Below are positions 1,442-54,582 of a stretch of DNA of 64,000 nucleotides, one piece after another (within the stretch, counting starts at the first letter, position 1; the number at the start of each line of letters is the position of its first letter). The translations under genes and the position numbers were made by a program. The DNA lies in NCBI RefSeq assembly GCF_036365525.1, contig NC_090399.1, positions 5,455,558-5,519,557 of the forward strand. The letters are read 5' to 3'. Source of the stretch: Heterodontus francisci. Taxonomy: Eukaryota. The notes beneath the pieces are model-generated. The model ran no database searches. It had not been told where the DNA came from and was given only the letters and a program-made list of their open reading frames with translations.

Positions 1442-1541
1442 GCTCGCCGATGAATTACGAGGCTGGGTGCACCGACATCAAATTGAAAGGACAAAGTCCA
1501 ACGAGAAACCAAAGCGTCAAAAGAAAGTTAAACAAGGCATG
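1442..1541 (+). CDS. ATF6B: ATF6-beta-like, internal coding exon (luminal domain): (R)LADELRGWVHRHQIERTKSNEKPKRQKKVKQGM
   Basis: Acceptor ctcccgcag ends at 1441; donor ATG|gtgggt. The peptide resembles the ATF6-family RLxxELxGWVxRH segment. Confidence 0.88.
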
Positions 1542-1717
1542 GTGGGTGACGATTACCCAAGCGTTCGAACTTGTCCATACAAAGTGGTGGGGGGAGGAGA
1601 AAAAGTAGCTGGTCCTCCAATCTTATTGTGTGCACGTTGATGTTTTCATAGTTGCCTGTTGTTGTTTCACTGAGAGATGGAGACCTTTTGCCAAACTAAA
1701 ACAAGCCCAGCAGTCTC

Positions 1718-2058
1718 AAAGAACAAAGAAAATTACAGCACAGGAACAGGCCCTCCAAGCCTGCACCGATCCAGATCCTCTATCTAAACATGTCGCCTAT
1801 TTTCTAAGGGTCTGTATCTCTTTTCTTCCTGCCCATTCATGTATCTGTCTAGATACATCTTAAAAGACGCTATCGTGCCCGCGTCTACCACCTCCACTGG
1901 CAACGCGTTCCAGGCACCCACCACCCTCTGCGTAAAGAACTTTCCACGCATATCCCCCCTAAACTTTTCCCCTCTCACTTTGAACTCATGACCCCTAGTA
2001 ATTGAATCCCCCACTCTGGGGAAAAAGCTTCTTGCTATCCACCCTGTTTATACCTCTC
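1718..2058 (-). mobile_element. CR1 3' fragment, same young subfamily as the 47-51 kb element
   Basis: Encodes ..FFTQRVVGAWNALP..RPLENRRHV*, nearly identical to the ORF2 end at 51213; same TTCTTTG tail. Confidence 0.93.
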
Positions 2059-3585
2059 CACTGGGGTGTGCTCCAAAGAAATCTCCTATCCCATCATGTC
2101 CTTTAAGCATGTGTATGGCTGATCGTTTATCAGAGCGGTAGTGATTTTCTTTTAGCCCAATTGACAATTTGTGTTTGACGGGTCCGTTTTCAGGCACAGT
2201 TTAATCTGTTCTCCAAAGGCCTGGGCAGTCAGTGTCCAGCTCTTACTGGCCTTGATTGTTGAGAGGAAATTCCCCAGATGTGGAAACCGTAAAGACTAAC
2301 CGTTTTGCCTGATCTCAATCTTGCTTGTTGCAATAACTGGAGGACCTCAAGCTTTGAGGCGCTCTAAGTGCCTGTAGATTTGTGCTTTATTTTATAATTC
2401 TCATCCTTGTTCTCAAATCCCTCCACTGCCTCGCCCCCTCCCTATCTCTGTAACCTGCTCCAACTCCACAACCCTTCGAGATCTTTGTGCTCATCTAATT
2501 CTGGTCCTTATTTTGCTTTGGTGACCGTGTCTTCAAGTGTCTGGGCCCTAAGCTTTAGAATTCCCTCCCTAGACCCCTTGACCTCTCTTAAGACCTCTTT
2601 GACTCACCTGTCCTAATGTCTCCTTACCTGGCTCAATGTCAGATTTTGTCCCATATTGCTCCTGTGAGTTTCTTTAGGATGCTTTACTACATTTAAGGTG
2701 CTACATAATAAATGCAAGTTGTTTACAATGTGTTCAGCTCTCTTGTATTTGTGGTACTTATGTCATCGGCAGCCAGTCCGCCAAACTGACGCTGCCCTTA
2801 CTCAGTTCTTTGTGTGAAACAATTCTTTTGTGTCAACCCGGGATACTAACCGATGACTGATAATTGGATCAGACAGAACAGCCAGGGATTACCGGGAGCT
2901 TTTTTGAAGTCATTGAGACTGTGTTGCTGCCCAACCCGAGTCAAGTCTGGAGATTATGATGCATGCCAAATTTATGTAGTTCATTCGGGCACGGAGGGGT
3001 CACTGAAGAAAGAAGTTGCATTTTGTAGATCGCCCTTTCTTGTCCTCTGGGCATCCCAGGGCACTTCACAGGTTGTGAATTATTTTGCAATGTAGTCAGT
3101 GCCGTGTCAAAAAACATGTCAGCTAGTTTGTTCAGGTTTGATTTGGGGAGGATTGTAGGTCAAAACTCTGGGAGAACTCCCTGCTGCTCTAGAATAATAT
3201 AAATGTATGTCATACATATGTACACGTTTTAGATGTGTGTGTCTGTTACATAGTATTGATGCGAGGAAGCAGATGGGTCTCCCCTGCAGAACGGCACCTT
3301 CAACAGTGTGGCACTCCCACACTGCTGCATTACCCAGATGATGTGCTGAGGGCTCTGGAGTGTGCTTGACCCAGCCGTGGCTCTCTGGCCCAGATGCATG
3401 AGTGCTATCCACAGCCTGAAGCTTGAATAGGATCTAATGAGCTAGTCTTGGAAGTCAAAGATGGGGAGATGCCACCTTTGAATTCTTAGGCACCTATCTC
3501 CCTGGAGTGAGGCAGGGAGTAAGTGGCCATCTGTGTTATTTGCTTCTGTGTTATTTGCTAATTGCTATTAACTTCTGCTTTTCAG

Positions 3586-3653
3586 AGGACGCAGCAGAGA
3601 AAAATCAATCTGTCCCGTTTTATCCCAGTTCATTCTGCAGACACTGCCACAAG
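3586..3653 (+). CDS. ATF6B: ATF6-beta-like, internal coding exon: RTQQRKINLSRFIPVHSADTAT(R)
   Basis: Acceptor cttttcag ends at 3585; donor AAG|gtgggt. Phase 0 in and phase 2 out exactly bridges the flanking exons. The peptide itself is poorly conserved. Confidence 0.75.
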
Positions 3654-5135: not shown

Positions 5136-5711
<576 letters not shown>

Positions 5712-10945: not shown

Positions 10946-10949
10946 TGAC

Positions 10950-14080: not shown

Positions 14081-14112
14081 AAACGCCTTCCCCAGTTATT
14101 AACAGCTTATTA

Positions 14113-15644: not shown

Positions 15645-15805
15645 CACTGGTGGTTCCCAGCCCCGCGCCCCCGTTAACTATCTCTCCGGCCCAAAAGCAA
15701 GCAGGATCTTTGCAGCGACCGGACAGGTTTTACGCTTGTTGCTTTCTTTGCCCCTCCCTACCTCCTTCACACACACACAATGCTCGTTCAAGAATTTGAT
15801 GAGTG

Positions 15806-16610
15806 AAATCTGGTACTGGCTGGTGGGGATGTTGAAGGAGGAATCTGGTCTGGTGGGGATGCGGAGGGGGGAATCTGGTCTGGTGGGGATGCGGAAGGGG
15901 GAATCTGGTCTGGTGGGGATGCGGAAGGGGGAATCCGGTCTGGTGGGGATGTGGAAGGGGGAATCTGGTCTGGTGGGGATGTGGAAGGGGGAATCTGGTC
16001 TGGTGGGGATGTGGAAGGGGGAATCTGGTCTGGTGGGGATACGGAAGGGGGAATCCGGTCTGGTGGGGATGTGGAAGGGGGAATCCGGTCTGGTGGGGAT
16101 GCGGAAGGGGGAATCTGGTCTGGTGGGGATGCGGAAGGGGGAATCCGGTTTGGTGGGGATGTGGAAGGGGGAATCCGGTCTGGTGGGGATGCGGAAGGGG
16201 GAATCTGGTCTGGTGGGGATGTGGAAGGGGGAATCCGGTCTGGTGGGGATGCGGCAGGGGGAATCTGGTCTGGTGGCGATGCGGAAGGGGGAATCCGGTC
16301 TGGTGGGGATGCGGAAGGGGGAATCTGGTCTGGTGGGGATGCGGAAGGGGGAATCTGGTCTGGTGGGGATGCGGAAGGGGGAATCTGGTCTGGTGGGGAT
16401 GCGGAAGGGGGAATCTGGTCTGGTGGGGATGCGGAAGGGGGAATCTGGTCTGGTGGGGATGCTGAAGGGGGAATCTGGTCTGGTGGGGATGTTGAAGGGG
16501 GAATCTGGTCTGGTGGGGATGCGGAAGGGGGAATCTGGTCTGGTGGGGATGCTGAAGGGGGAATCTGGTCTGGTGGGGGTGTTGAAGGGGGAATCTGGTC
16601 TGGTATCAGC
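15806..16610 (+). repeat. 30-bp G-rich minisatellite (GAATCTGGTCTGGTGGGGATGCGGAAGGGG), ~26 copies, in the presumed ATF6B 3' UTR
   Basis: Exact 30-bp period; starts ~160 bp after the stop codon. Confidence 0.97.
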
Positions 16611-19600
16611 CGGAGGTGGGGATCCAGAGCAGGGATCTGGTCTAGTGGGGATCCGGAGGGGTGATCTAGTCTAGTGGGTATGAGTAGTCAGAGGTCTGGT
16701 TGCTTTTAAGCTTCTGTGAGGCACTGGGGGCCTAGACGAGCTCGCCATCTTCCAATCTTGGAAAGGTGCAACACGCTACCTGCTGTGTTTCCAATCCCTG
16801 GAGCTGTGGCCTGCCAGAATTTTTGGTGATGGTGAAACCCACGTTACAGGGAAGTGTGTGTGTGTATGACGTCTTGCATTAATGTCTTATAATTCCACTA
16901 GAATGACTGTGAAATATTAATTTTTATCCCCCATCCCCAACGCCACAGCCTCTAAATATCCAGTTGGTAAAAGTTCTGGGATTATAGACTGGTACTTTCT
17001 GTTCTGCAGAATTCCAAACCAGCGGTGCTCGTCCAGCTTACCGTACTAACCTATTGCGCAAAAGTCTTGTATTGATCCTTGACCATATTGCCTGATGCAG
17101 TCTTTTAATTACCCCCTTCGTGTCCTCAACTTGAAGCTACGTTGCATTTATGCAACATGCAGGTGGCCTATTCCAGTACAACTTGCTTTAGTATAGACTG
17201 AAGAATCACTACGAGTGTGCAGGTGACAGCTGGAACGTCTCTGCTATCAAACTGAACTCGATGTGCAGAATGCTTCAATACTGAAGCAAGAAAACCTTTG
17301 TGTAATCCTAGTTTGGTCCGCTTGGGGTCCTGATTTGTGCAGTAATGGCCTGGTCACTTATATCATTTCTATTTTTATTGCATTAAATTCATCCTGACCA
17401 GAAATTCTGTGATTGCAACAAACAATTTCTTATCATCTGCACTAGCGGAGACTTCTAATTGGAAGCTGCCCATTAGCCCCAAACTTTTTGTTCATGTATC
17501 CAAAACAAAAATATTTGAAGCAGTTTCGTGTTTGTTTCCATGATTATGTGTAGTACAGAATGGGGATTTCACTGTTAATTGTACATAGCATATTGGGTTT
17601 CTATCATGTAACCATTCTGTTAACTGGTAATCGTGTGTGTGTTTGCATTTATGTCTCATGTGAAGTTCAACACAGCTTCGCTTTTATGGTTTAATTTTGT
17701 TTTCTTTGAGGTGTTCTGAATCACCAAGCATTAGCTTTGCCCATCACAAAGTATGAGCGCTGCAGAAAACCCTCTTCATTGTGTCGTAGTGAATCATTGG
17801 GAGAAAGCATGCGAGGGGGATGGCAGTGTCGGAACAAGTTCCAATAGAAAGGAAGTAAGGGCACAGCCAGTCGAAATGCCCAGCCAATATTTGACAGGTA
17901 GCAAGTGAGCAATGGAAACAATAATTGGCATAATTTCCCCTCATCACCGCCTCCCCCCGCCACCCCCGTCCCCAAGAAAAGCATCTACTGGGGTGATGTG
18001 TGAAGATCCATGAACAAGTGACACGAATCCTGCCTGAGCCAATAGTTATGGATTCATCGCTGAACATGACACCAGTGTGATGGAATCCTAAGTTGTTAGC
18101 TGGTCTGTATGTATATATAAATCTAAAGTTGTGATTTAAAAAAATATATATATATAATTTATTATTTAACTTGCATTTTTTGTGTAGTATTTTTCTGATG
18201 TTTGGTTTTGCAAAGTCCTAAGAATGCACTAAATTTCCAGTGGGCCTGGCCCAGTACCATGCAAAATGCTTTTCCCTCCCAGTCCTTGCCTACTTCAGCA
18301 GGGCACCCTGATATGTAAATACTGAGGTTCCAGATTACCTTTATTGATGTATTCCTGAGGGGTGCTCAAGCAGCGTCAACTGAAAATGCCAATGCTTGTG
18401 TCGTTTTGTTTGCGGTTGAAAGAAAACGCTTTACTTAAAACCTCAATTGTGTGCATGGCCTGGCACCTCGATGTGTGGTGTTGGACCCTTGCCTGTACTT
18501 GCATAGACGTCGATGGGCAGCAAGCATTGCATCCGTGATGTACTCTAGTTCTGATGGTGGTCCTGGTGTGTCTGCAGAATGCTCCCCCTAGTAAAGTACC
18601 TTGAGTACTAGCAGTTCACAGTTCGAAACAGGAGGAGGCCATTCAGCCCCTCTACCTGGTTCTATCATTCAGCTAGATCGAGGCTGAACTGTACCCCAAT
18701 TCCATTTACCTGCCTTGCTCCATGGCCCTCGCTACCCTTGCCCAACAAAGGAAGTAGTTGCATTTATACAGCGTCTTTCATGACCTCCGGACACCCCAAA
18801 GTACTCACAGCCAACAAAGCACTTCCCTTTTTCCCGGAAGTATGGACACAGTTGTAATGCAGGAAACACGGCAGCCAATTTGCGCATGGCAAGCTCCCAC
18901 AAACAACGGAGGTACTGAACAGGGAATCAGTTTTAGTGATGGTTGAAACACCAGTCGTGCGGTGGGATCTTTTTCATCCGCCTGAGAGGGCAATTGGGGG
19001 CTTTGGTTACAAAAGACGGAAAGAATAGCGCTTCTGACAGTGCAGCACTCCCTCAGTACTACAGTGGAGTGTCAGCCGAGATTTTGTGCTCAAGTCTCTG
19101 GAGTGGGACTTGAACCCAAAACCTTCTGACTTGGGTGGGCGCGAGAGAGAGAGCGAGCCACAGAAATCTGTCAGTCTGAGTTTTGATCGTTCAGTTAACG
19201 CAGCCTTTTTTAGGGAGCGAGTTACAGATTTCCATCACCCTTTGTCGAAAAAGGGCTGTTTCTTGCTTTTTCAGAATGGCCTAGCCTCACTTTTACGATG
19301 GAGCCACCTTGATTTGGATGAATCCCCACCATAGGAAATACTTTCTACGTGTCTACCTTATTGACTGGTTTCATCTTAAATGTACTGTGCTACTGCCCCT
19401 TGCATAGGAGTAAGAGAAGTTCATTCAGCTCCTTGAGCCTGTCCCACTATTCAGTGAGATCATGGCTGATCTGTATCTTAACTCCATATACCCTTACCCA
19501 ACAAAGATATGATCATTCTCAATTTTAAAAGCCTCCACAGCCTTATGGGAGAGAGTTTTCCACATTTGTGTGAAGAGGTGTTTCCTAATTTCACTGTATT

Positions 19601-22600
19601 TTAAGATTATGCTGCCTTGTTTCAGAACTAGAGGAACTGGTTTCTCTTCATCCGCCCTATCGAATCCTTTCAATATTTTAAGCACATCAATCGGCTTGCC
19701 CCTCAGTCTTTATTTACTCAAGGGAATACAAGCCTAGTCTATGCACCCTGTCCTCCTACTTTAACCCTTTTAGCCCCCGGTTTCATTCTGGTGAATCTGG
19801 GCTGCACCTTCTCCAAGGCCAGTGTATCTTCCCTCAGCCTCTTGCTCGGATTGGATCTGAAAAGGCCAAGGAAATGAGCTAAAGCTTCCACAGCTTTCTA
19901 TGATTCTATATCGTAACCAGAAAATTAATTTTTTTCCCGCCTGCTTCCTGTGGCATATTGCGGTTTAAAATCGACATAGTTTAAACTAGAGACAGCCCCA
20001 CCCATTACCATGGTACCAGGGCTGGGAGATTTCAGTTACGTGGGGAGACTGGAGAAGCTAGGATCCAAATCCTTAGACCAGAGGAGTTTAAGGGGAGATT
20101 TCATAGAGGTGTTCAAAAACATGAAGGATTACCAGAAGACACTAAGTTAAAATAAGTGGCAAAAGAACCGGGCAGAATTGGATAAATACTTGAATACTGG
20201 GAAAGAAGAAAAGCAACTTGAATTTATATAGTGCCTTTAATGTAATGAAACGTCCCAAGGCACTTCAGAGGCACAATTTGAGCCAGTTGAGGTGTTATGA
20301 GGGCAGACAGCCAAAAGCTTGGTTAGACGGCGGGAGTGGGATTAATTAGTTAGCTCTTTCAAAGCGCCAGCACAGGCACGATGGGCTGAATGGCCCCCTC
20401 CTGTATTGCAGGATCCTGATGGTGAATGAGCTGAAGTGACACGTGGCTGCCTGGTTTCCAGTTCATCAGGTTATGATCATTATTGCGGTGTGTGTACATC
20501 TGAATTTTCTTGCAACAACTAGTTACTCGGGTCAAAGGCTTTGTGCTGTGTTGTCGTTTAATCTCACCTTCCCTCCCCCTTGCCACATTTCCAGCCTGTT
20601 TGATTCACATGACCTGCTCAAGTTACTGTCATTGTGACGGTAATGTTCTGTTTGCAGGTGAGAATGCGGTAATGCTGCAGCAGGTTTCACCTTTCAATTT
20701 TATATATTAAAAAAAATTCTGGGTATTAAAGCCTGGAACTAAGGTGTCATGAGTTGTTCTCATGTTCCTTTTTCTTTTAATTTGAGGTTTTGGGATTCCC
20801 CCCACCCCCCCTCTGCGCCATGGTCATAATGTGACCAAGCCATCACTGTGTGTCCAGTTAAATCTATCTTCAATTGTTCAGCAACAGCTTTGTGAACCCA
20901 AATATAAACCAGCTGCACCCTAGAACCTTGCTGTAGCTGTAACCTCCGACATAACAACTGAGCAAAATGGTGGTGTAAATTAGTGATTGCAATATGTTTT
21001 TTTTAAAATATGAGTGACCATCCTCAGGAAATGTATCTGAAGTGAGTGGTTTGCATTGAAACTGTTACTGCAAATAGGATGTTAGGGTGGTGGCAGCATC
21101 TGTGAGCGAAGGCAAGTGGCCTCTTCAGATAAAGGGCACCAGTTCCAATATTGGCCTGTTTGTGGCGATTCCCAGTTTAAAACGGTCCAATTCTTGGTTT
21201 GTTTGTTTTAGCTCTTATTGACGAGATACTCGAAATGTAATGCGTTCCATCCATATCTTTGTGTTCTGGTGACATGTTGAAGCACAGGCACAATCCAAGA
21301 AAAGGGGAATGGAAAAGAATGTAGAATGCACTTAGCCAGTTGTCAGCCAGGGCTGTTGAGGTAGTTTTGAAGAAAATTTATTCATGCACTTGAATAAAAC
21401 TTGTGCTTCTCTGCAAACTTGCCTAGACTTTGGCAAGTCAAGTTTCTGTTGTACTTGACAGTCTTATTTTCTTTTGAAAATCATTGTGCGACAATTCTGT
21501 TGTGATTTGATATTGTTTTATAACCTTTTCTATTGTATTTGTAACATTGCAGTCTTGGAGATATCCTTTTCTATTGAAGTCTTGAAACGTAACACTCGCC
21601 GACAGCCACTGTTAATGTGGGTGTGTTGGAACAGGAAAGCGGAGTTATCTTGGTAATTCAGATGCTCTTGTTACAATTCTGTCAACCTGCTTAGGTCCAA
21701 ACATCACATTCCCTCCAGGTCTGATGAGTCTAAGGTTTTCACCTCCACTATAGGTCGCAGGAGGCCATTCCAAATGTTGATCGCTTTTTTTTTTGTATCA
21801 AGTTCCAGCTAAGATCCATCCTAAACTGTCTGTTCACTGGTTTCAGTCTGTTCCCTGATTCTGCCATACTACTTTTCCTTGTGGTATCAGTCCAGTTTGG
21901 CTTTGTCTATCCCATCCCCCTCTCTGTTGTCAGCCGCGCCTTTAGCTGCCTGGACCTTAAGCTGTAGAATTCCCTCTCTGCCTCTCGACCCCTCTTTCCT
22001 CAATTAAACCGCTCCTTAAAAAGCTACCCCTTTGACAACATTTTAAATCACTGGCCCTGATATCTTCTTGTGTGGCTCATTGCTGAAGTTTGTTTGATAA
22101 TCGCTCCTGTGAAGCGTTTTGGGAGGTTAAAAGCAATATATGAATGCAAACTCTCTTTTTTTTCCATTCAAGACCCATTTCTCCAATTCTGTGAACCCAG
22201 GATTCACTGTTAATGCCCCTTTCTGCACCCACCCTTCAGTATTTCCCATTATGTCTTGCTGGACACAGTACTGTACAGAGTCCCACTCTGAGTATTGGCG
22301 CCACACTATCCGACTTGCACTTAGAGCTGGCTTAGGGATATAATGTAGAATTCTAACCGCTTTGTTTATTGTTGTTCCACAATGATTTGACAGTACTGGA
22401 ATCTGTGAACGCCCATATCCCTTTCCACCTTGCCTTCAGCACTGTTCTGGCTAGCCTAACATCTGTTATTTCCTGCCAGCATGTGTATTGACTGTCTGGA
22501 AGTGTTGTGTTGCCACTGCTCAATGTCAGCACTTGCTCATTGCAACAAGTGATCTTAGGAAGGACTGACAGTCAGCCTAACCAATCTGAAACTGGCTCTG

Positions 22601-23701
22601 CATATCCTTTGAGTCTCTTCCCTTGTCTCCTCCCCATCACCTATATTGAATCTTTGCCTTCATGGGGTTGTCACTGGTGACAGTTTGCAGTTAAACATCT
22701 GGGCAAGGAACTTCCAGAGAGCCAGCACACCTCGGGGAGGTAAAAGTTGAGATCAGCAACACTATCCCTTTGGACTGTGCTGACATAGGAACAGAAGGAG
22801 GCCATTCAGCCCCTCGAGCCTGTTCCACCATTCAGTTTGATCATGGCTGATGTGCCTTAACTTTAATTTAGCGCTTTAGTTCCATATCTTTGGATACCTT
22901 TATCCAACATCCTGCCTATATCTCAGTTTTCTTTCAACCCCCAGCCTCAACAACTTTTTTTGGTGGGTGGAGGGGGTCAAATTTCCTGGACCTTTTGTGT
23001 GGGAAAAGTGACCTCCCTCCTGAACAGCCTGGTTCTAATTTCAAGGCTATAGCTATATTTTGGGATTGCCCCCACACCAGAGGCAATGGTTTCTATCTAT
23101 CTACCCAATCAGCTCCTGCAATCATCTTAAACATGTCCGTTAGATCACCCCTTAATCTTCATTAAGCCGAGTCAGAATAAAAAAAGTCTCCTGCCTTGTA
23201 AACTATAATTTTCCCTTTATGAATTAAGTTTACCTCATCTGTAATGGGCATGGAAAGTGATGTGCTGGAGTCATGGACTTTTTTTTACCAGCTTAGGTCA
23301 GGGCATGTTTTGGGATCAAAGGCAGCGGGTGGGAAAGGGATACCTTTGTCCCTGATGCCCATGCTTTCTCTGTCCTGTGTTCAGGCCGATGAGCATTGCT
23401 AAAATGGGGTCATGTTGGCACCCACAGTGATGGGGTGGGCAGCACGAAAATTCAGCAGGAGAGCAGGGTGGATGAACCTTCAAAAGCACTCCTTATGCCG
23501 AAAGACGATGGTATGTAATGGCCAAGCTATGCAAGAGGCAGAGGCGAGCAGTGAGAATTAACTGGTGCGGAGTGTTGCCAAGAGTATTTGTAACTATTCC
23601 TGTCTGATCCTGTGAACTATGCAAATATCTGGTATGTTAGGTTTTTTGTGTAAATAACTTTTTTTTTATTTCTGGATTTGATGTAAAATGTTGGCGTTTG
23701 T

Positions 23702-23707
23702 AATAAA
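23702..23707 (+). terminator. Candidate distal polyadenylation signal of ATF6B (alternative AATAAA at 21393)
   Basis: AATAAA preceded by U-rich/TGTA elements (tgtaaataactttttttt, tgtaaaa) and followed by GT/T-rich sequence. No transcript evidence. Confidence 0.4.
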
Positions 23708-25006
23708 GGTGTTAGAAATCAAACTGGCTGCTGTTTTAATCTTCACCTTCCCCATTTAGCACAGAGCAAAGATGGGTTTCCTGACTGTGTTACTCTGTAA
23801 GTGGAGGTCATGTCGGTGCCACCGTGCGAGGGGATGCCCCGTTGGTGTTGCTGTGCCACAGGTCTGAATTGTTTGACACTTTAGCTGCTGTATTAAATGT
23901 ACATTCCATAGAGAGAGAGTAAAATATTCCCTGTGTTTAGCTCACAAGATTAATCCCAGGTTCCATGAGGTGACAGGATTGATCAGAATCACATGCTGAT
24001 GCAGTTTGTGTGATGTTACTGTGATGTATGAAAGACAGTGTGAGTTTAGTGAACCTTGTACCCTGGGCGATGATGATGATCTAACCCCAAGCTAACAGTG
24101 TAGGGAAAATTAGGTGTTTGGTCAGGGTGACTTTATAGTGCTTGTGAAAGTATTTGATGCTCTGCCAAAGATGATGATATTTATGATCTTTTCTAGGAAA
24201 GGGTTTGCAAGAGCCAGATGTCCTTTGTTGTGGAGAACTATACAGTCATGGATTTGGTTGTTGGAGACTCCAGTCATCTTTATGCTATGCGACGGTCCCC
24301 TTTGAAAGAGACTGACTGGGGTGTGAGAGAACAAGTAGAAGGTTAGGTAGTATTGCTAGAATCAGCAAGTGCAAGATAAAGGGTAACATCCACGCTCGGA
24401 GTGTTAGAGAATCGTAGAGCGATCCAGCACAGACGGAGGCCAGTCCTGCCTCTGTCAGCTCTTTGAAAGAGCTTATCCACTTCATGTCCTGCCCCTTTCT
24501 CCATAGCCCAGCACTATTTTCCTTTCATCTATGCATCCAATTCCCTTTGTTACTTACCTTCACCACCCTTCTAGGCAGAGCATTCCAGATCAAGACAACT
24601 CGCTGTGTTTTTTTTTAAAACTTTCACGTTTGCCCTCTAGTTCTTTTGCCAATCCCCCTAAATCTGCATCCTCTGATTACTGCCAATGGAAACAGCTTCT
24701 CCTTATTTACTCCATCAAACCTGTTCAAGATTTAAAACTTCTTGATCAAATCTCCCTTCAGTTTTCACTGCCCTAAGTAGAACCTCCAGCTGCTCCATGT
24801 AACTGAAGTTTTTTTCCATCCCTAGTAAACCTCCACTGCACCCTCTCCATGCTGTGCATATCCATCCTAAAGTGTGATGACCAGCCTTGACCGGTATTGT
24901 TCAGTACGTGTGCTGAAGGATATTTGAGGCTCTGGAGAGGGTACAAAGGATAATGCAATGTTTCAGAGCTCTGATTAATCAGGAGAGGTTCTGTGAGTTG
25001 AGATGC

Positions 25007-25012
25007 TTTATT
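25007..25012 (-). terminator. Candidate polyadenylation signal of the OLFML2-like gene
   Basis: AATAAA on the - strand (tttatt on +) in non-repeat sequence ~4.8 kb past the stop codon. Inference only. Confidence 0.3.
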
Positions 25013-28000
25013 TTCAACAAATGCAGACAAGAGAGAATACCATTGCGGTTTTTGTTAAAAGATGAAAGGGTTGGAATGATTTGAGATAGTGGGCACACAT
25101 ATAAAGGCAGGAAACAATTCCTTGCCCTAAAGTTATTGCCCTCTGGGGCAAACAGCCAAGAAATAAAAAGTAGGAAGTTACAGGAGTTCATTAGACTTCA
25201 GTGGATACAATAAGTTCACACATCCCACATATGGGCTATAAATTAGAGGGGTTTCACTGGCCACAATAGTACAGAAAAGTCCCGACTGCAGTGGAGATTG
25301 TTAAAGTTAGTTAAAGGCGCCCTTACTGTGCAGTATCTGAAGTGGGAGTACTCATCACTGACAATGTGTTCCCACGATGTGAAAATAACCATTTTGTTCA
25401 TCCTTGACTTTAGTACAAAATCATTTTTTTTTTAAATTGCAGAATCAGAGGATGAACACTCTCTACGGAAAAAGGAAAATCTTGTATTTATGTAGCGCCT
25501 CACTAAGGTCCTGCAGCCAATTTGTGCACAGCAAGCTCTCGGACAGCAATGAGATAATCTGGGGGTTTTGGAATGTTGGTTGAGGGATAAATATTGCCCA
25601 GGACACTGGGGAGAACGCACCTTCTCTTCTGGCCGTGGGATCTTTTACACCACCTGAGGGGGCAGACAGGGCATCGGTTTAAAGTCTCATCCAAGAGACA
25701 GCACCTCTGACAGTGCAGCACTCCCTGGGTACTTGCACTGGGAGCGTCAGCCTTTATTTGGTGCTGAAGTCCCGAGTGGGGCTTGACCCCGTGACCTGAT
25801 TCTGGGCTAAGTGCTCCTCACTGAGTGACGTGAGTAGGACAGTGTACTGGTTCTGTTCCTGCACTTGTAACCCAGAATATTCAAACTACACTACAGTGAG
25901 CTATGAATTTCAATGAAGCTGGTAATTGTGTTGGCATCAGAGAAAGAAAACAGCCATGAAAAGATGCTGAGTTGTTGCATTTTTACATGTGCTTCAGGGA
26001 GGGGAGCCAACTCCATCCCCCTTTCCCAGCTAGTCTGGTCTACGCTTGACTCCAGTCTCTCTCTACACCACTGACTCAATGCCCTCTGAAGTGGTACAAC
26101 CAGTTGCTATTGGAAAATGGTATTGACGTAGAAGATCAGCCATGGTCTTGTTGAATGGCGGAGCAGGCTCGATGGGCCGAATGGCCTACTCCTGTTCCTA
26201 TCCTATGAGCCCCACCTTAGTCCTGGGCAATAAATACCTGCCTTGCCAGTGACTCCCCACATCCTCAGAACAAATTTAACACCAACTCCTGTCCCCAGCA
26301 TTTCGGGGTGCATTGAAAGCATGGAGAAAACTACTCTCGTGGTGTTACTGCTACAAATGCCCTGTGCACACTTCTGTTCTGAACTTGTATTAAAATATAA
26401 GGGCTCATTGACCTGCACTGGTTTACGGTCTGTCAGTGCTCTTCCTTTGAAAACTCTTGTTTTCAAATCCCTCCAGGGCCTTGCCTCCCTATCTTTGTTA
26501 TCTCCTCCAGCTGCCAGCTCTCTGCATTCATCCAATTGTGGTGTCTTGAGCATCCCTGATTTTAATTGCTCCATTATTGGTGGCTGTGCTGCTAAAACCC
26601 TAACCTGTGGAATTCTGTCTGTAAACCTCTTCGGTCTATCTCTGTCTGTCTGTCTCCTTTAAGATGCTTCTTAAAACCTACCTCTTTGACCAAGCTTTGG
26701 GGCACCTCTGCTGATATCTTTTCTTACATGGCTCGGTGTCAAGTGTTACCTGATGATGCTTCTGTGAAGCACCTTGGGACATTTTACTGTGTTGCAGGTG
26801 CTATGTAAATGCAAGATATTGTTAAAATCTTAACTTGGTTTGAGCTCTTCTTCCTCCACCTGATGATTTAGTGCAGTGCTGAGCCAATGAGGCTTATAGC
26901 GTTAGTCCTGGATGGGGAGGAGGCCTTTCAAAGTTCACACACGCTGCCCTCCGGCTTGTGAGGGGCAAGTTCGCCACTCCTTATCTTCCTTCAGCCACCT
27001 GCTGGATCGTGTGAACATTGTTGGGGGCATTGGGAGGGGAGGGGGTGTATAGGGGGCAGAGCGGGGGGAGTGACTAGATTTCTAATTTCCCCCCCCCCCC
27101 CCCCCGCCCAGCCCGAGGGTTAAACAATTGCGGCAGATTGGCTGCCCGCTATCGAAACAGAAGCAGACCGTTTTTATAATGAGAAGCCGATCCACTGCAC
27201 TGACGCCTACCACCCGTGAATCGCCCAATCACTGCTCACTTTCTAAACTCACTCTCGCAGAATGCTCAGCCAGGATAAAATCATGCTGCACAGGAGGAGA
27301 CCATTCACCCTATCATGCCCGTACCAGCTCTTTAATAGAGCTATCCCGTTAGTCCCACATTCCCTGCTCTTTCTCCATCATTCTGCAATTTTTTTCCCTT
27401 CAGGTATTTATCCAATTCCCTTTTGGAAGTTGGAATTGAATCTGCTTCCACCGTCCTGTCAGATTCCAGCTCTCAACAACTCAGTGATAAAAGAAAGTCT
27501 CTTCATCTCTGGTTCTTTAGCCAATCACCTTAAACCTATATCCTCTGTTATCGGCCCTCCGTCCGGTGGAAACAGTTTCTCTCCCTTCACTCTATAAAAG
27601 CCCTTTATGATCTTGAAAACCTCTATGAAATATTCCCCCTCAACCTTCTCTGCTCTAAGGAGAACTGTTTCACCAGTCTGTCCATAACTGAAGGCTCTCT
27701 TCCTTGGTACAATGCTAGTAAATCTCGCTGTGCCCTCACCAAGGCCTTGACATCCTGCCTAAAGTAGAGGCTTGTCAGTTCATATCGGTCCTTACTGCCC
27801 CAGCACTATCTTCAGGAGAGGAAGATGATGGTAGCCTATATACCGTCTGGGAAAAGGTGCATTTTAAGGTATGGAGTGACAAGTAAAAATAGTTTGTTTT
27901 TACAAGAACAGAATTCTTTCCTATTTCAACACAGAATCGAAGGCCTCAGTAGTTGTGGGGATGGTTACAAGGCCTGCGGGCCCCACCTTCCCTCAGGGAT

Positions 28001-29823
28001 GCAGTCAGTGGCAAATTCCCTTGCAGCCATAGTAACCTTCCTGTCAGGAGATGTACAAGCCCAGCCTCCTCGCAGGCATGTTGCTATGGTTACAAATTCT
28101 TACCAGTGGAGTCATCGCCAGCGGGAGTGTAGGCTAGTCTACTCATGCTTAGGAGGAGAAAAAAATTGCAGAAAGCGTTCAACCATGACTCCAAATTTGG
28201 GTTTAAAAACCCTCATCAGCGTCCTGTCTCAGCTTGTGTTAGCACAGGAGCAGTGGTTGCAGTGACCTCCGTCTGTAGGCTTTACCAGGAGGAGGATAAA
28301 GTAACCCGGCTTCTGGAGTAACCGTGCTCCGTTCCGAAGTAGGCGCAGTGCAGATCCACCAGAATAAAACTGGGGGTTAAATGATGAGCACAGGTTGCAC
28401 CGACTCGGCTTGTATTCCCTCAAGTACAGGGTGATCTAATTGAGGTGTATAAAATGATTAAAGGAGTTGACAGGGTAGGTAAAGAGAGAAACTATTTCCT
28501 CTCTTGTGGAGTTGGGTGAGGGAAGACTAGAACAAGGGAACATAACTTAAAATTAGAACCAGGCCGTTCGGGGGTGATGTCAGGAAACATTTCATACACA
28601 GGGTAATGGAAATCTGGAACGCTCCCTCCCTCCCGCCCCCCCCCCTCCCCCTCCCCTCCCCCCTTTAAGCTGTTGAGACTGAACTAGTCAATGGAATGTT
28701 TCAAAGGGAGATGGATAGATTTGGGTAAGGGTATTTAGAGTTTGGGATCTAAGGCAGTAACTGGAGTTAAGATACAGATCAGCCATGAACCAATTGAATG
28801 ATGGAACGAACGCCAGGCGCTGAATGGTCTCCTCTTGTTCCTCGGTTCCCACACCTGATCACGAGCACTGGGTGAAAAGGAGGCTTCACTGAGATGGTCT
28901 CTGACACCTCACTGGCCTAACTCAGAGTGGCTGGCCATTTGAGTTCAATACCCAACGGGCTGGGGCTCTTTTCTCTCGAAAAGGGAAGGCTGAGGGTGAC
29001 CAAATAGAGGTCTTTGAAATGGTTGAAAGGGTTCGATCGGGTAAACGTGGAGAAGAGACTTCCACAATAGCAGGAGAGCAAGACAATGGGGTCATAAATA
29101 AATGGGGTCACTAACAAATTCCAGTCGGGAATTCAGGAGAAACGTCTCTACCCAGAGAGCGATGAGAATGTGGATCACGCTGCCACAGGGAGTGGTTGAG
29201 GTGAATAACATTGATACACTTGAGGGAAAGCTGGATAAACACAAGAAAACAAAAGAAATGAAAGAGCTGCATGTATATCAAGTCTTTCCAGACCACTGGA
29301 AGTCCCAAAGTGCTTTATAGTAAATGAAGTACTTTTGAAATGTAATCACTGTCGCAATGTAGGAAACCCAGCAGCTAATTTGCACACAGTAAGTTCTCAC
29401 AAACAGCAATGTAATAATGACTAGTAATCTGCTTTAATGATAACTTAGTGATAAATATTAGCCAGGACACTGGGGATACCTCCCCTGCTGTTTGAAATAG
29501 TGCCATGAGATCTTTCACATCTACCTGAGAGAGCACACGGGGTCCTCGGTTTAATGTCTCATCCAAAAGACGGCACCTCCAAGTTGAGGTGAGTAGCACA
29601 GATGCGTTTAAGGGGAAGCGAGGTAAGCACACAAGGGAGAAAAGAATAGATGGAAATGTTGATGGGATGAGATGCAGTAGGGTGGGAGGAGGCTTGTGTA
29701 GAGCATAAACACTGGCATGGATCAGCCTGTTTTATGCTGTAAAACTCAGTGTAATACTGGGGCCTGCTGATGTACTCATGAGCCTGGAGTCACAGGTGAG
29801 GTGGGGGGAGGAAGTCACACAGG

Positions 29824-30425
29824 TCAGTAAGAAAATATAACATCATAAGTGACTTGGAATCCATTGTCCCAAGCGTATAGGAGCTTGTCTGTTGGGTTGT
29901 AGTCTATCTGGGTGAGGTAAGAGTATCTGCTGTTTATCATCAGCCCAGGGTTGGACTCGAAGCCCGTGTGGGTGTCAAAGGCATAGGTGATGATACCTTC
30001 CTTCTGCTTCTTTAGGTCCAAGGCATAGAAGACGCCGCAGATCAGGAAATAGTTGCTGTAGGAGGGCCGGCGCACTTGGGTTTTCCAAGTGGTCTCCTTC
30101 CTGAAGGTTAAGTCAATAGGGTCCAGCCGGCTGAGCACCAAGACCTCTTCGGGCAGGTAGCCAAAGTCATTGGAGAAGTAGGTCACCCAGAGACCACCCT
30201 CGTCCACCGTGAAGTCCACTTCGGAGTAGCCCTTCCACCCGAACAGCGGGGCGGACCCAGCCACCAAATCATCCAGCGAGGCCCAGCTGGCGGCCGTCCG
30301 CTGCCGCAGGTCGTAGCGAATGATGGTCCGCGTGTAGGCCTTGTTGTAGTAGAAGGAGCCATTGTAAACTGCGTGACCTGTCCCCATCCAGCTGTATGGG
30401 AGTTTGTACGTGTTGCCCCACCGGC
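29824..30425 (-). CDS. OLFML2-family gene, exon 7 (terminal): olfactomedin beta-propeller GRWGNTYKLPYSWMGTGH...QIDYNPTDKLLYAWDNGFQVTYDVIFSY*
   Basis: Acceptor ttttccag, phase 1. Hallmark motifs GTGHxVYNG, DFxVDExGLW, ICG, YAFDT, DYNP..LYAWDNG. ETTWKT and YAFDTHT are typical of OLFML2. Spliced CDS is 1584 nt (527 aa + stop). Confidence 0.96.
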
Positions 30426-33582: not shown

Positions 33583-33768
33583 CCAGTTTTAAATGATCCA
33601 GGTTGCGGAACTCGATCAACGTGGTGCCAAAGAAATAGTTGGCCACGTACACCTTCTCCTGATTAACAATCAGATCCTTCATCCAAACCCCTTCCCCACG
33701 GCCATAGTTGCTGTGTGTCACGGGGTCCCAGATTATCACAGGAGTTCCAGCGCAGCTGTCCTCTCGAA
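33583..33768 (-). CDS. OLFML2-family gene, exon 6: start of olfactomedin domain (..SCAGT..NYGRGEGVWMKD..KVYVANYFFGTTLIEFRNLDHLKL(G))
   Basis: Acceptor gttctag; donor G|gtaagg; phase 1/1. Contains the YGRxEGxWMKD and NYxxGxxLxEFRNL motifs of OLFML2. Confidence 0.93.
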
Positions 33769-35060: not shown

Positions 35061-35096
35061 TGCATCCCCCACACTCCTGCACGCAACACGCTCCCA

Positions 35097-36048: not shown

Positions 36049-36250
36049 TCATGTTTCCGTTGTCGTCTGAAGGTTTTCCAGTCACGGCCTTTGAAACAGA
36101 GACTGCAGGGTGAGCCGTGGATGTATGAAGCTTGATTGTGGTCTTCTGAGTGACAGGGGGCTGAGGACTGACCCAATATTTAGGACCAACATTCTTCGAT
36201 GTGTTGCCTCTCTGGGGCGAGGGCTTGCTCGGGTTGAGCTCAACTATGAC
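36049..36250 (-). CDS. OLFML2-family gene, exon 5: Ser/Thr/Pro-rich linker
   Basis: Acceptor gtcttgcag; donor ATGA|gtaagc; 202 bp, phase 0 in and 1 out, matching exon 6. Composition fits the OLFML2 S/T-rich region. Confidence 0.75.
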
Positions 36251-42402: not shown

Positions 42403-42585
42403 CTTCGGGGTTTTATTCAGCGGGAAGAGCTCCTGCTTTCGCAGGAGGATGTTAAGTTTGCTAATCTCCTTCTTTACGTTCCTCATGGTGATGGAGAAGT
42501 TCTGGTAGATGAAACGGTGCTGAATAATCCTCTCGAAGGTCTCTCTCAGGAGAGCATTGACACTCGGCACATTACGTTCCATCCT
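42403..42585 (-). CDS. OLFML2-family gene, exon 4: coiled coil (..YQNFSITMRNVKKEISKLNILLRKQE..)
   Basis: Acceptor ttaagcag (NAGNAG; alternative start 42588); donor AAG|gtacga; phase 0/0. Resembles OLFML2 [26 protein letters not shown]. Confidence 0.85.
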
Positions 42586-44305: not shown

Positions 44306-44413
44306 CTTCTCCAGCTTCTTTAGTTGACTGTTGAGTTTGGCTGAGTAGGAATTGAGTCTCTTCGTCTCTGTGTTGTCGAAGATCTCCTGGAGGTCGGCAG
44401 CCAGTCCCTGGAT
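44306..44413 (-). CDS. OLFML2-family gene, exon 3: coiled coil IQGLAADLQEIFDNTETKRLNSYSAKLNSQLKKLEK
   Basis: Acceptor cccacag; donor AAG|gtacag; 108 bp (36 aa), phase 0/0. Aligns without gaps to the 36-aa LQSMVDLL...MNTLEE segment of OLFML2A as I recall it. Confidence 0.82.
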
Positions 44414-45682: not shown

Positions 45683-45922
45683 CGTCATCAAGTCCGAGTC
45701 TTGTATCTTTGTCCTCTCCGCTCCCCGCTCACTCTTGTCCTCACACGGGTCGAACCCGCAGTAACACTTGCACTTTGACCCTGTGCTTGCCATCTCCTTT
45801 GGTCGAAAGCCCTCGGCCAAAGCCTTGCCACCTCGCCACCTTGTCTCCTCAGGGGTGGGCATTTTGAAGGCACACTTACAGTCAGCTTCCTCCTCCCTTC
45901 TCCTCCTCGACAAAGCCTTGTT
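45683..45922 (-). CDS. OLFML2-family gene, exon 2: Cys-rich N-terminal region (..EADCKCAF..SKCKCYCGFDPCED..)
   Basis: Acceptor ccgctcag; donor ACG|gtatgt; 240 bp, phase 0/0. Resembles the tandem DCRCxC..NPCE motifs of OLFML2A/B. Confidence 0.85.
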
Positions 45923-47080: not shown

Positions 47081-47479
47081 CATATCCTTCTGTTAATTTG
47101 GAAGATTAAGAGATGATTTGATCAAAGTTTTCAAGGGTCTGGATTTTATTTTGCTGCCGCCGCTAAAAGATGGCGGCCCGCACGCGCGGGTTTTACTCTG
47201 CAGACTCACTGCAATATTATACGCGGCGGCTCATTTTCATGGCCCCCATGACATGGAGGGGGCAGGTGATCCGTCCCCGGCAACGGCATCGGGCATCATT
47301 GTGCATTTTTAAAGGGCATCAACTTCTTCCATTGAATTTGAATTTTTAAAGTCATAAATGTAACGTAAAAAATGTAATAAAAGATTCAAGCACCTCTCCC
47401 ACCCCACCCCCGCAATGGCCAAACAATTTATCAACTGCTCTCTTCCACCCCCCCCCCCCCTCAAATAAAACTTATCTTG

Positions 47480-51213: not shown

Positions 51214-53734
51214 AGAGAGGATCTGGATCGGCGCAGGCTTGGAGGGCCGAAGGGCCTGTTCCTGTGCTGTAATTATCTTTGTTCTTTGTTCTTTGTTCTT
51301 GTTCTTTGCGATCCCAACCTTCTGCCCCTCCCAAAGTTTATAAACTATGATCTTTATCTCTTCCCACCACCCCCGAGACCAATCGAAAACATTTAACCCT
51401 GTTTCCCACCCCCCCCGCCCCTCCACTGACCCCAAGCCTGATCCCCCTCCCCTCCCCAAACCAGTCTTCCGCCTCGGATCTCTGAATGGAGATTCGAATG
51501 CCCGGGAATGCCGGAAACCTACCTCAATATCGCAGCTGGACAGCCATTCGGAGCAGGTAAGTCATTAATTCAGTCATTTTAATTAATTACCATATTTAAA
51601 TACTGCTCCCATTGCCGAGTGGCGGCGGGTGGGGGAGTGAGGGAGGTGCCGTCATGAGGCTTCACTGCCGCTGGCAATACGGGGCCTCGCCTTCCCGGCA
51701 TCGAGGCCCGAGGTGGGCATTTTCCGGGGTCCCCCCCGCCATGACCCCCAATGTTGGGAGCTCGGTAAAACCCAGTCCGAGATATTAAGGGGAATTGATA
51801 GGGTAGAGAGAGAAATTATTACCACCGGATGGAGAGTCTAGAACTGGGGAACATAGACTAAAAATTAGAGTTAGACCTTTCAGCAGTGAAATTAGGAAAG
51901 ACTTCTGCAACATAAAGGATGGTAGAAGTTTGGAACTCTCTCCCTCAAATGGCAACTGATGCCAGATTAATTATTAATTTTAAATCTGCAAAAGCTGGTA
52001 TGTGGAGTTCAGTCACTGATCAACCGTGACCTCATTGAACAGCAGAACAAACTCAAGAAGCTTAAATGGCCTCTTCCTCTTCCCATGTCCCGACGTTCCT
52101 TTCTCCCTCGTTTATCCAGCTTCCCCTTAAGTGCATCTCTTTACTCCTCTCAACCGCTCCCTGTGTTAGCCAATTCCACACTCTCACCGTTCTCTGGGTA
52201 AAAAAGTTTCTCCTGAATTCCCGATTGGATTTATTACTGACTCTCTTCGATGGACTGAATGGCCTCCTTCTGTGCTGTAATTTTTCTGTGGTTCTATTTT
52301 TTTTTCTATTTGTGGCCCCTAATTCTGGTCTCGCCCACAAGTGGAGGTGTCGTCTCTCCAGAGATGTGCGAAGACAGGTACGTTAGGAAGACCAGCAGGA
52401 ATGCTTTTTAATAAAGAATGGATTTTTCATGTTCGCGATTCTGTTTTTGGGGCTACAAACAGAATCTATTGATGAAAGGAAATATCTGTAAAACGTGACA
52501 GGCCAACTGAAATCAGTAAATCCCCTCTGTACAACAGTTGTCATATAGCCACATGCGGCTCCAATTTAAAGAAAGGGAAAAAACAGCTTTTATGCAACAT
52601 CTTTCCTGATCTCAAAACATTCTGAAGTGCTTTACAGCCAAGGAAACAATGTTTGAAGTCTAGTCACTGTCGTGATGTCGGCAGTCAATTTGTGCACAGC
52701 AAGATCCCACGAAGGGCAATGTGACAAGTGACCAGATGAACTGTTTCAGTGATGATGGTTGAGGGACAAGTATTGACACCAGGGAGAACTCCCCTGTTCT
52801 TCTTCAAAATAGTGGGACCATTTATGTCTGTCTGAGAGGGCAGACGAGGCCTCGGTTTAACATCGCATCCGAAAGACGGCACCTCCAACAGTGGAGCACT
52901 CCCTCAGTACTGCACTGGAGTGGGACTTGAACTCACAACCTCCGACTCAGCAGGGAGTGTGACCTTGGCTGCTAGTCATTCACTAACAGTGTCCCCAGAG
53001 TATCCAGAATGCTTGGCTCAGCTGTTATATTACTGGAGACCACCTCCCCACAATTCACCCCACGCCCCCACCCCAAAGAAAATCAACTCAATTACCTGAT
53101 CTCCCATCTCCCGGATGCTGGAGAAGAATAGATCCCAAAAAAAGATCTCACTTACCTCCTTCCGACACCACGCCCTCCCCTCTCCTGACCCAGGAGAGTA
53201 GCGACTATTTCATTCAGATTCTCTGTTGCTGTGGGCTGCCCACTGGCACTGACTCCACGGCTGGGTTTTAAGCAATTCAGACAGGTGGACAAGCAATAAG
53301 GAACAGGAGGAGACCCATCAGCCCCTCCAACTCATTCCGCCATTCAAATAACTGAGGGCTGATCTGTATTTTCATTCCATTTATCCACCTTAACACCTAA
53401 CAAAAATCGATCAATCTCAGTTATGACATTTCTACTTGACCCCCCCAGTCTCAACAGCTTTTTGGGGGAGAGAGTTACAGATTTCCACTACTCCCTGTGG
53501 AGAAATGTTTCCTGATATCATCCCTGAACGGCCTTGGCTCTAATGGTGAGGCTGTGCCCCCTTGTTCTGATTTCCTGCTCACACTCGATTCCATTCGGTG
53601 TGAACAGCCTTGTGTGTAGTGCTCTGTATAACTCCTCCTGTCAGTGACACTAACCCAGATTTCAAACCCACCATCCCAGGGCACCTTGACAATTTGAAAT
53701 CAGTTTCAAAAAAAGTTGCAAATAAAAAAAGAAC

Positions 53735-54182
53735 AAAGTTGCATTTATATAGCGCCTTTTACAACTTCAGAATCCCCCAAAGTGCTTTACAGCCAACGAA
53801 ATACTTTTTTTTTGAACTGTCATCACTGTTGTGATGTAGGAAACACAGCAGCCGGTCTGCACAGAGCAAGATCCCACAGACAGCAATGTGATAAATGACC
53901 AGATCATCTGTTTTTGTGATGTTGATTGGGAGATAAATATTGGCCAGGATACTGGGAATAACTCCCCTGCTCTTTGAAATAGTCCCATAGGATCTTTAAC
54001 ATCCACCTAAGAGGGCAGATGGGCCCTTGATTTAATATTTCATCTGAAAGACGGCACCCTCCAGCAGTGCAGCACTCCCTCAGTACTGCACTGGGAGAGT
54101 CAGCCTGGATTATGTGCTCAGTTGTCTGGAGTGGGGCTTCAAGCCACAACTTGAGTGTGCTAACCCACTGAGTCACTGCTGT
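53735..54182 (-). mobile_element. Near-complete Deu-domain SINE (SacSINE1-like); other copies at ~3020-3410, 4305-4605, 14785-15105, 18755-19135, 25480-25830, 29265-29580, 30460-30790, 52590-52960
   Basis: Recurrent block gtgctgcactg..ggtgccgtctttc.gatgag..ttaaaccgaggcccc.tctgccctctcaggtgga..taaaagatccca, with an L2-like tail ggcgctatataaatgcaa. Confidence 0.85.
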
Positions 54183-54519
54183 GTCAGTAAACATGACTAT
54201 GCATCTGTCAGATTGTCTCAAAACCCAGCTTGTTCACTAACGTCCCTCTGAGGACTGGAAACCTGCCCTCCTTACACACTCTGGCATATAAGTGACTCCA
54301 GATCCACAGCAACGCAGTTTGTCTACTCAGTTCTATCAGGACCCACTACGAAGATTTGGCCAATTCGGGCTGAGCAGTAAATGCCAGCCTGGCCAATGAT
54401 GCCCTTGTCCCGGGAACGAATTTTAAAAAGCACTCAGTGCCACCAGCATCTGTGCGTGCACTCACCCCGCACACTGTCAACCAGCCTTCATCCTGTAGGA
54501 CAGAAACACCGCTCCTTAC

Positions 54520-54582
54520 CTGTGCTGAGGTGATCAGTATGGAATGCAGGAGCAATGTCAGGACCATGAGTCCAGCCCTCAT
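54520..54582 (-). CDS. OLFML2-family gene, exon 1: signal peptide MRAGLMVLTLLLHSILITSAQ
   Basis: ATG, basic n-region, hydrophobic core, small-residue cleavage site (TSA|Q); strong donor CAG|gtaagg, phase 0. Confidence 0.75.

Follow-up and report, generated by a model that had tools for sequence, protein, structure and literature searches.

A probable third OLFML2 ohnolog faces ATF6B on the MHC chromosome of the horn shark

A 64,000-nucleotide stretch of the 6.0-Gb horn shark (Heterodontus francisci) genome (C29:5,455,558-5,519,557; hereafter the window, with positions counted from its first letter) holds the 3' end of ATF6B and, tail-to-tail with it, an intact gene of the OLFML2 family. This gene is very probably a third OLFML2 ohnolog, here termed OLFML2C: the copy belonging to the major histocompatibility complex (MHC; human chromosome 6) paralogon. 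Its structure, its separation from OLFML2A and OLFML2B in the genome and in trees, its position beside ATF6B across distant vertebrates, and its chromosomal context are presented below.

The ATF6B-OLFML2C pair

Four ATF6 peptides, all encoded on the forward strand (window positions 5197, 5376, 5412, and 15474), map to the last five exons of the gene for a 695-amino-acid (aa) RefSeq protein named "ATF-6 beta", the last exon being 100% identical. Mapping of this protein places the last five coding exons at ~1442-1541, 3586-3654, 5136-5247, 5361-5445, and 15379-15644 (including the stop), on the forward strand. The gene starts at C29:5,349,503, ~106 kb upstream, and the window contains its 3' end only. 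On the reverse strand, the OLFML2-family gene runs in seven exons from 54,582 to 29,824, with a coding sequence of 1,584 nucleotides (nt), a single terminal stop, 527 codons translated, GT-AG boundaries at all six introns, and intron phases of 0, 0, 0, 0, 1, and 1. The 527-aa translation is identical to horn shark RefSeq XP_067865257.1, which is named "olfactomedin-like protein 2A". The two stops converge with 14.2 kb between them, in agreement with the original prediction of a beta-type ATF6 converging on an intact seven-exon OLFML2-family gene.

Splicing of exon 6 to exon 7 is seen in one contig from each of four runs (4/4), joining ~29,550-30,424 to 33,582-33,768 with the 3.15-kb intron removed and a one-base ambiguity in the junction position; three of these contigs are ~2.3 kb long, close to full transcript size. 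The runs represent two samples from two studies, one sample coming from a second organism with 19 substitutions, and their RNA nature is presumed, as no run is recorded as RNA. Of the six junctions for which the original prediction had sought RNA support, one thus has reads of presumed RNA origin across it.

OLFML2 and ATF6 loci in the horn shark genome

A profile search of the genome with the olfactomedin (OLF) domain returned 23 matches, three of which have the OLF domain split in the same way: C8:107.62 Mb, C32:24.16 Mb, and the window on C29. Bamboo shark OLFML2A is 96% identical to the last exon on C32, 74% to that on C8, and 57% to that in the window, which points to the C32 locus as the true OLFML2A. 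The last exon on C8 is 80-84% identical to tetrapod OLFML2B, and this locus, convergent with ATF6-alpha, is the true OLFML2B. The ATF6 gene on C8 occupies 107.28-107.60 Mb on the forward strand and faces OLFML2B across 19 kb, an arrangement matching that of the window. In an unrooted 22-row ATF6 tree, labeled with NCBI names and built from rows that exclude mammalian beta and invertebrates, the window ATF6 falls with the beta proteins of coelacanth, lungfish, bowfin, and bichir, and the C8 ATF6 joins the alpha proteins of birds and turtles (100/99). The separate OLFML2A and ATF6-alpha/OLFML2B loci that had been anticipated are therefore present, and the grouping of the window ATF6 with alpha, which would contradict the original prediction, is not seen.

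Other OLF genes, labeled from their translations as OLFM1/2/3-like, myocilin-like, and latrophilin-like, lie on C8, C32, and C43. OLFM4-like tandem clusters (labeled by inspection) are also present, with four OLF copies at C40:17.07-17.18 Mb, one carrying an internal stop, and two at C17:75.0 Mb.

Phylogenetic position of OLFML2C

The main maximum-likelihood tree comprised 47 proteins and 511 columns under LG+C20+F+G4, with tunicate rows set as outgroup and no amphioxus row; rows were hand-picked from the matches for taxon spread, and most bird OLFML2A and bovid OLFML2B near-copies were omitted. Three separate clades were recovered, A (OLFML2A, 99/95), B (OLFML2B, 100/99), and C (the third gene, 97/97), within a vertebrate OLFML2 clade set apart from the tunicate outgroup at 98/99. 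Clade C comprises shark, ray, lungfish, axolotl, gar, and paddlefish proteins together with one long lamprey fragment, and its support is 100/100 when lamprey is removed. Each of the three clades spans cartilaginous and bony vertebrates, and on these trees the OLFML2 duplications predate the shark/bony-fish split. Approximately unbiased (AU) tests reject the union of shark C with shark OLFML2A (p = 9e-9) and with shark OLFML2B (p = 3e-7). The two candidate identities, an OLFML2A ortholog as named in RefSeq and an OLFML2B ortholog, were thus discarded on these tests together with the true loci on C32 and C8. The contention that the gene is neither OLFML2A nor OLFML2B holds, with a third clade and no nesting inside either of the others.

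All four sets yield, at moderate support, a best tree that unites C with A (85/83, 90/94, 90/93, and 87/94), and under LG+G4, though not under the mixture model, the pairings C+B and A+B are rejected (p = 0.020 and 0.046); the closest paralog of OLFML2C is probably OLFML2A, not OLFML2B. This topology matches the published pairing of the second genome doubling: Lamb 2021 (PMC8040251) gives the paralogon as ((A,B),(C,D)), with A, B, C, and D corresponding to human chromosomes 9, 6, 1, and 19, and the chromosome 9-chromosome 6 pairing is represented there by NOTCH1+NOTCH4, BRD3+BRD2, and RXRA+RXRB. Nakatani 2021 (PMC8302630) interprets the second doubling (2R) as an allotetraploidy of the gnathostome stem and assigns the MHC to a type of microchromosome shaped by biased gene loss, which fits a fast-evolving and often lost OLFML2C copy. 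Nothing on the chromosome 9/chromosome 6 pairing is contained in the available part of Simakov 2020 (PMC7269912). The original ohnolog inference is supported, with the amendment that the sister is probably OLFML2A rather than OLFML2B, which shares the ATF6 neighbor.

Orthologs and synteny in other vertebrates

Among the best 120 of 1,074 matches to the window last exon, the top 13 are elasmobranch proteins from 11 species, at 73-89% identity apart from the two self matches, followed by a lungfish protein at 60% and then by ordinary OLFML2A and OLFML2B at 55-59%. A profile search added third-clade members in axolotl, paddlefish, gar, and whale shark (4 of 148 other cluster representatives with a best match to clade C), in a search over representatives that hides members within 50% of another representative. 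Axolotl carries three OLFML2 proteins on three separate chromosome pieces.

The supplementary gene tables of Verissimo et al. 2023 (PMC10751288) place atf6b (forward), "OLFML2A" (reverse), butyrophilins, CYP21, and TNXB on sawfish chromosome 34, and fkbpl (forward), atf6b (forward), "OLFML2A" (reverse), and vps52 on reedfish chromosome 1, with a distinct olfml2a on reedfish chromosome 9. On lungfish chromosome 9, the same supplement shows an unnamed forward-strand gene facing ATF6B (reverse), near TNXB, C4B, PBX2, and NOTCH4, with OLFML2A on chromosome 12; because the accessions of the lungfish clade C protein and ATF6B are numbered consecutively (XP_043939101/102) within a single chromosome piece, we infer that this unnamed gene is the clade C member. 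The main text, in its available part, does not mention the gene. A third OLFML2 is found beside ATF6B wherever its position could be checked, in horn shark, sawfish, and reedfish and, by accession order, in lungfish. The gene is intact in the horn shark, as predicted, and is not peculiar to it, with OLFML2C also present in lungfish, axolotl, gar, paddlefish, and, by synteny, reedfish. RefSeq names the third copy OLFML2A in most species and OLFML2B in one skate; the label "OLFML2A" is wrong for many models from sharks, rays, lungfish, axolotl, and gar.

The available part of the PMC10751288 supplement also lists LHX2/LHX9-like, carnitine acetyltransferase-like, TMEM268, RNF183, QRFP, RGS3-like, PTGES-like, and NPDC1-like models near the pair on reedfish chromosome 1 and sawfish chromosome 34. 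These models may be unrecognized ohnologs of the MHC block. Several of them have human homologs on chromosome 9.

When the N-terminal region of the lungfish protein (residues 20-330) served as query, no match other than itself came out of 2,019 candidates, by a word-limited method that does not show absence. No amniote or teleost clade C protein turned up in either the last-exon or the profile search, neither of which could exclude one, and loss in amniotes, teleosts, coelacanth, frogs, or chimaera does not follow from these searches. No OLFML2 gene is known beside human ATF6B. OLFML2C would have been lost in amniotes and teleosts, for mammals as judged from the literature. The human OLFML2 genes are described as two in number (PMC5100274), and ATF6B often adjoins TNX in tetrapods (PMC11401434).

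MHC chromosome and paralogon context

C29 is the MHC chromosome. It carries 59 of the 64 MHC class I matches, at 32-67 Mb, and three complement TED loci (not typed as C4), at 30.9, 31.8, and 46.1 Mb. The NOTCH NOD domain has four matches, one each on C8, C32, C43, and C29, the C29 copy at 20.9 Mb being the most divergent, and PBX is likewise present on each of the four, with the C29 copy at 20.5 Mb a weak match. A tenascin (FN3 repeats and a fibrinogen domain), found with the fibrinogen model, lies at C29:6.28-6.32 Mb, 0.76 Mb from the window, where a TNX label would rest on position rather than on a tree; fibrinogen domains with its exon layout are also found on C32 and C8, and a search with the tenascin EGF model matched only at the C32 gene. 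The OLFML2 paralogs lie on distinct paralogous chromosomes, as is required of 2R ohnologs, and the gene belongs to the ATF6B/MHC block as first proposed. Among the class III neighbors suggested alongside that proposal, a tenascin is present on the same chromosome, and FKBPL is not the next gene upstream: no FKBPL is seen in an open reading frame listing that covers 40 kb ahead of ATF6B exon 1, and a TRIM/B30.2 gene comes next. A motif scan of C29:6.24-6.32 Mb gave no CYP21.

The nearest neighbors of the pair are B30.2 genes: upstream of ATF6B lie one RING exon and one PRY-SPRY exon, and further SPRY exons are found at 5.55, 5.60, and 5.75 Mb. The majority of 150 scored B30.2/SPRY matches in the genome fall on C29 (2.7-50 Mb), flanking ATF6B/OLFML2C on both sides. 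Two further copies of ATF6B exon 1 lie outside the window, at C29:5,009,038 and C29:5,180,713. One, with its ATG and donor intact, is embedded in a ~7-8 kb block that is 94-98% identical to sequence preceding the real gene; the second copy has diverged further and has no GT donor. They may be orphan first exons that duplications of the TRIM cluster carried along, or else a haplotype copy in the assembly.

Exon organization and protein anatomy

All OLFML2C exons are on the reverse strand. Exon 1 (54520..54582, 63 nt, phase 0) encodes the ATG and a hydrophobic, signal-peptide-like segment; the candidate signal sequence is a hydrophobic helix at residues 2-28, mostly from exon 1, as judged from the structural model and the sequence. 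Exon 2 (45683..45922, 240 nt) encodes the cysteine-rich region, with the first motif reduced to CxC (C36, C38) and the second in the form CxCxC-x4-C (C72-C81). Exon 3 (44306..44413, 108 nt, equal in length in horn shark OLFML2A and OLFML2B) and exon 4 (42403..42585, 183 nt) encode, respectively, a predicted helix and a predicted long helix of the putative coiled-coil region, exon 4 being skipped in RefSeq isoform X4. Exon 5 (36049..36250, 202 nt) is the sole serine/threonine (S/T)- and proline-rich linker exon, vs two in OLFML2A. Exon 6 (33583..33768, 186 nt, phase 1-1) begins the OLF propeller, including C271, and the coding part of exon 7 (29824..30425, 602 nt with the stop) supplies the remaining OLF domain, with the D398-N452-D502 triad and C457. 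The 3' untranslated region spans 29544..29823 by the extent of the spliced contigs, whose ends fall at 29544-29553 in the four runs, and a gap of 15645..29543 separates the converging 3' ends, within which the end of the ATF6B 3' untranslated region is not delimited.

Intron phases match in horn shark OLFML2A on C32, which carries one extra exon, an 83-codon, phase 1-1, S/T-rich linker. The 112-aa shortfall of OLFML2C relative to OLFML2A arises because this exon is absent and exon 5 is shorter; the linker measures 69 aa with 22% S+T, vs 173 aa and 22% in OLFML2A, and four N-glycosylation sequons are present. The first OLF exon, read from DNA, is 186 nt in OLFML2C and OLFML2A and 177 nt in OLFML2B. 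Over residues 30-137, identity is 29% to horn shark OLFML2A and 25% to OLFML2B, vs 51% between the latter two, consistent with the short and N-terminally diverged protein described in the original prediction. The last exon scores 202.7 bits against PF02191, with OLF identity of 54-57% to OLFML2A/OLFML2B vs 37% to myocilin. An AlphaFold2 model, weak overall (mean predicted local distance difference test score, pLDDT, 56.8; <50 in the N-terminal cysteine region and at residues 286-342) and read for gross fold only, places helices at 96-113, 116-141, and 148-188 after the cysteines (pLDDT 55-65).

In photomedins, a signal sequence is accompanied by a pair of CXCXCX9C motifs, a coiled coil, an S/T region, and an OLF domain; mouse photomedins are secreted and bind chondroitin sulfate-E and heparin, as cited in PMC5100274. 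The first motif is whole in the lungfish and gar orthologs, and the horn shark cysteine region would be a degenerate homolog, making the protein a variant member of the photomedin subfamily. The N-terminus is missing from the axolotl clade C model, as is the first OLF exon from the gar isoform; both may be annotation gaps.

Several repeats accompany the pair. A C-rich tandem array occupies the window start (1-1310), and a 30 bp x 26 array (15816-16604) lies just past the ATF6B stop. Within OLFML2C, intron 5 contains 17-19 bp and 44 bp tandem arrays (33958-35917), and intron 1 contains a CR1-type long interspersed nuclear element (47381-51210, forward) with two long frames, labeled by inspection as a 292-aa esterase-like and a 992-aa endonuclease/reverse transcriptase, because of which it is apparently young and intact. 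Two long minisatellites, at 55645-59338 (14 bp x 264, almost devoid of CpG) and 60067-64000 (28 bp x 140), begin ~1.1 kb upstream of the OLFML2C start codon.

Predicted calcium site

The myocilin calcium ligands Asp380, Asn428, and Asp478 (PMC6719662) align to D398, N452, and D502 of horn shark OLFML2C, with the numbering anchored on neighboring residues given in that paper and on myocilin sequence context. The triad is D-N-D in all eight OLFML2A/OLFML2B rows and in four of the five elasmobranch C rows, thorny skate having D-R-D. Elsewhere in clade C it reads N-N-D in lungfish, T-I-T in axolotl, T-L-S in paddlefish, and S-L-S in gar, and by this alignment the ligand triad is lost in the last three. 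OLF identity between horn shark and axolotl is 85% for OLFML2A and 49% for the third gene, and the path length to catshark is 0.34 for OLFML2C vs ~0.08 for OLFML2A, corresponding to a ~4-fold rate.

Origin of OLFML2C

A tail-to-tail ATF6/OLFML2 pair would already have been present before the first vertebrate genome doubling (1R). 1R would then have given rise to a chromosome 9/chromosome 6 line and a chromosome 1/chromosome 19 line, and 2R to four copies, of which the chromosome 1 block would have retained ATF6A and OLFML2B, the chromosome 9 block OLFML2A alone, and the MHC block ATF6B and OLFML2C, the chromosome 19 block having lost both. OLFML2C would afterwards have evolved fast, lost one linker exon, and apparently been dropped in amniotes and teleosts.

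Several observations weigh against this history. The branch uniting C and A is never starred, and under the mixture model neither C+B nor A+B is rejected (p = 0.06 each); in the smallest sets, the clade A bootstrap is 72-75%, with which a position of C just inside OLFML2A is formally compatible. All C branches are long, and attraction could aid their grouping. The axolotl, gar, and paddlefish members are known as proteins, not by genomic position, and the reedfish member by synteny, outside the tree. The horn shark protein departs from the strict double CXCXCX9C motif, with six of the eight cysteines in its CxC and CxCxC-x4-C. The partial lamprey protein (P0195) joins clade C (97/97 and 93/97), which would then predate a gnathostome-only 2R. 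Together with the non-rejection of A+B under the mixture model (p = 0.061), this last placement would suit a lineage older than 2R, derived from a 1R or pre-vertebrate duplication that lamprey shares. We consider such an origin very unlikely: the lamprey branch is very long (2.2-3.8 changes per site) and flagged for odd composition, the protein scores 36-37% against A, B, and C alike, leaving lamprey out of clade C is not rejected (p = 0.06), and A+B is never the best tree.

It is very unlikely that OLFML2C is instead a single-gene duplicate of OLFML2A that arose in the jawed-vertebrate stem, moved into the MHC, and diverged, without being a whole-genome ohnolog. C is sister to A or unresolved within it, and exon 6 length and the exon 4 helix resemble those of OLFML2A; such a duplicate must, however, have landed tail-to-tail with ATF6B exactly as OLFML2B stands to ATF6A, its introns mean that it is no retrocopy, and a chromosome 9-chromosome 6 sister relation is expected from 2R anyway. 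An elasmobranch-specific duplicate of OLFML2A or OLFML2B, with the bony-fish proteins as unrelated fast copies, is what the database names imply, and N-terminal identity between shark C and bony-fish C is just 27-29%, no higher than to OLFML2A. The AU tests given above and the reedfish and lungfish copies that also lie beside ATF6B make this hardly conceivable. An OLFML2 ohnolog of the MHC paralogon remains the reading that we favor.

Predicted function and significance

From its anatomy and family, OLFML2C would be a secreted extracellular-matrix glycoprotein of the photomedin type, in which the N-terminal cysteine region and coiled coil likely mediate oligomerization and the C-terminal five-bladed OLF propeller would, in the horn shark, keep its Asp-Asn-Asp ligands and bind calcium. 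Its most likely role is that of a compact counterpart of OLFML2A, either partly redundant with it or confined to certain tissues, that binds partners in the matrix or on the cell surface. A broader proposal, which we offer tentatively and regard as possible though not likely, is that OLFML2C is an unrecognized MHC class III-region gene caught at graded stages of loss, with the calcium site intact in most sharks, N-N-D in lungfish, its ligands absent from axolotl, gar, and paddlefish, and the gene gone from amniotes and teleosts. Under this proposal, the calcium-less forms would have decayed or gained a new function twice independently, and the pair would have been held since before 1R in two paralogons; if so, this would suggest shared or embedded regulation linking an endoplasmic reticulum-stress factor with a secreted matrix protein.

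Ohnologs lost elsewhere but kept by sharks and non-teleost fishes are well known, and OLFML2C is a new member of a known family and no new mechanism. Its gene models are already in RefSeq under a wrong name and pass unremarked in the available part of the PMC10751288 supplement. A literature search found no paper that names or discusses a third OLFML2, with most subscription papers and bioRxiv supplements, which may mention it, out of reach; the available parts of the axolotl and newt MHC papers (PMC12619710 and PMC12863176) make no mention of OLFML2C, and the curated ohnolog tables of Lamb 2021 (PMC8040251) have no OLFML2 or ATF6 entry in the part available. The OLFML2 family, counted as a pair, would become a trio and provide a new marker for the best-studied vertebrate paralogon, its best tree following the proposed chromosome 9-chromosome 6 pairing. 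The ATF6/OLFML2 neighborhood would be dated to before the first genome doubling and one ancestral class III neighbor of ATF6B fixed. The naming error behind the "OLFML2A" label on many third-copy models is corrected, and the OLF propeller gains a graded series of calcium-site loss that is open to bench tests.

Comparison with known systems

OLFML2C shares with OLFML2A (photomedin-1, human 9q33.3) the order of putative signal peptide, cysteine region, predicted helices, linker, and C-terminal OLF domain, intron phases of 0, 0, 0, 1, and 1 at matching sites, the 108-nt and 186-nt exons, 55% OLF identity, and the D-N-D triad. It differs in its chromosome, its length (527 vs ~640 aa), the absence of the 83-codon S/T-rich exon and of two first-motif cysteines, its 29% N-terminal identity, and its ~4-fold rate. 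Like OLFML2B (photomedin-2, human 1q23.3), it is convergent with an ATF6 gene and has the same domain order, with 54% OLF identity, whereas the partner of OLFML2B is ATF6-alpha on C8, OLFML2B is extended N-terminally by an acidic stretch and its linker is much longer (~750 aa in tetrapods), and C+B is never the best tree. The OLF fold is that of the solved myocilin and noelin propellers (phmmer E 3e-41, Foldseek E 4e-20), with aligned calcium ligands; these belong to other subfamilies at ~30-37% identity, and no OLFML2 structure is among the structural matches. Among the sets of the MHC paralogon (NOTCH1/4/2/3, BRD3/2/T/4, RXRA/B/G, and tenascin C/X/R; paralogon 9 of Lamb 2021), copies likewise lie on chromosome 9, 6, and 1 blocks, with the chromosome 9 and 6 copies as sisters and a fast MHC copy. 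Unlike in those sets, the OLFML2 copy of the MHC block is absent from human, and the family has therefore been counted as a pair.

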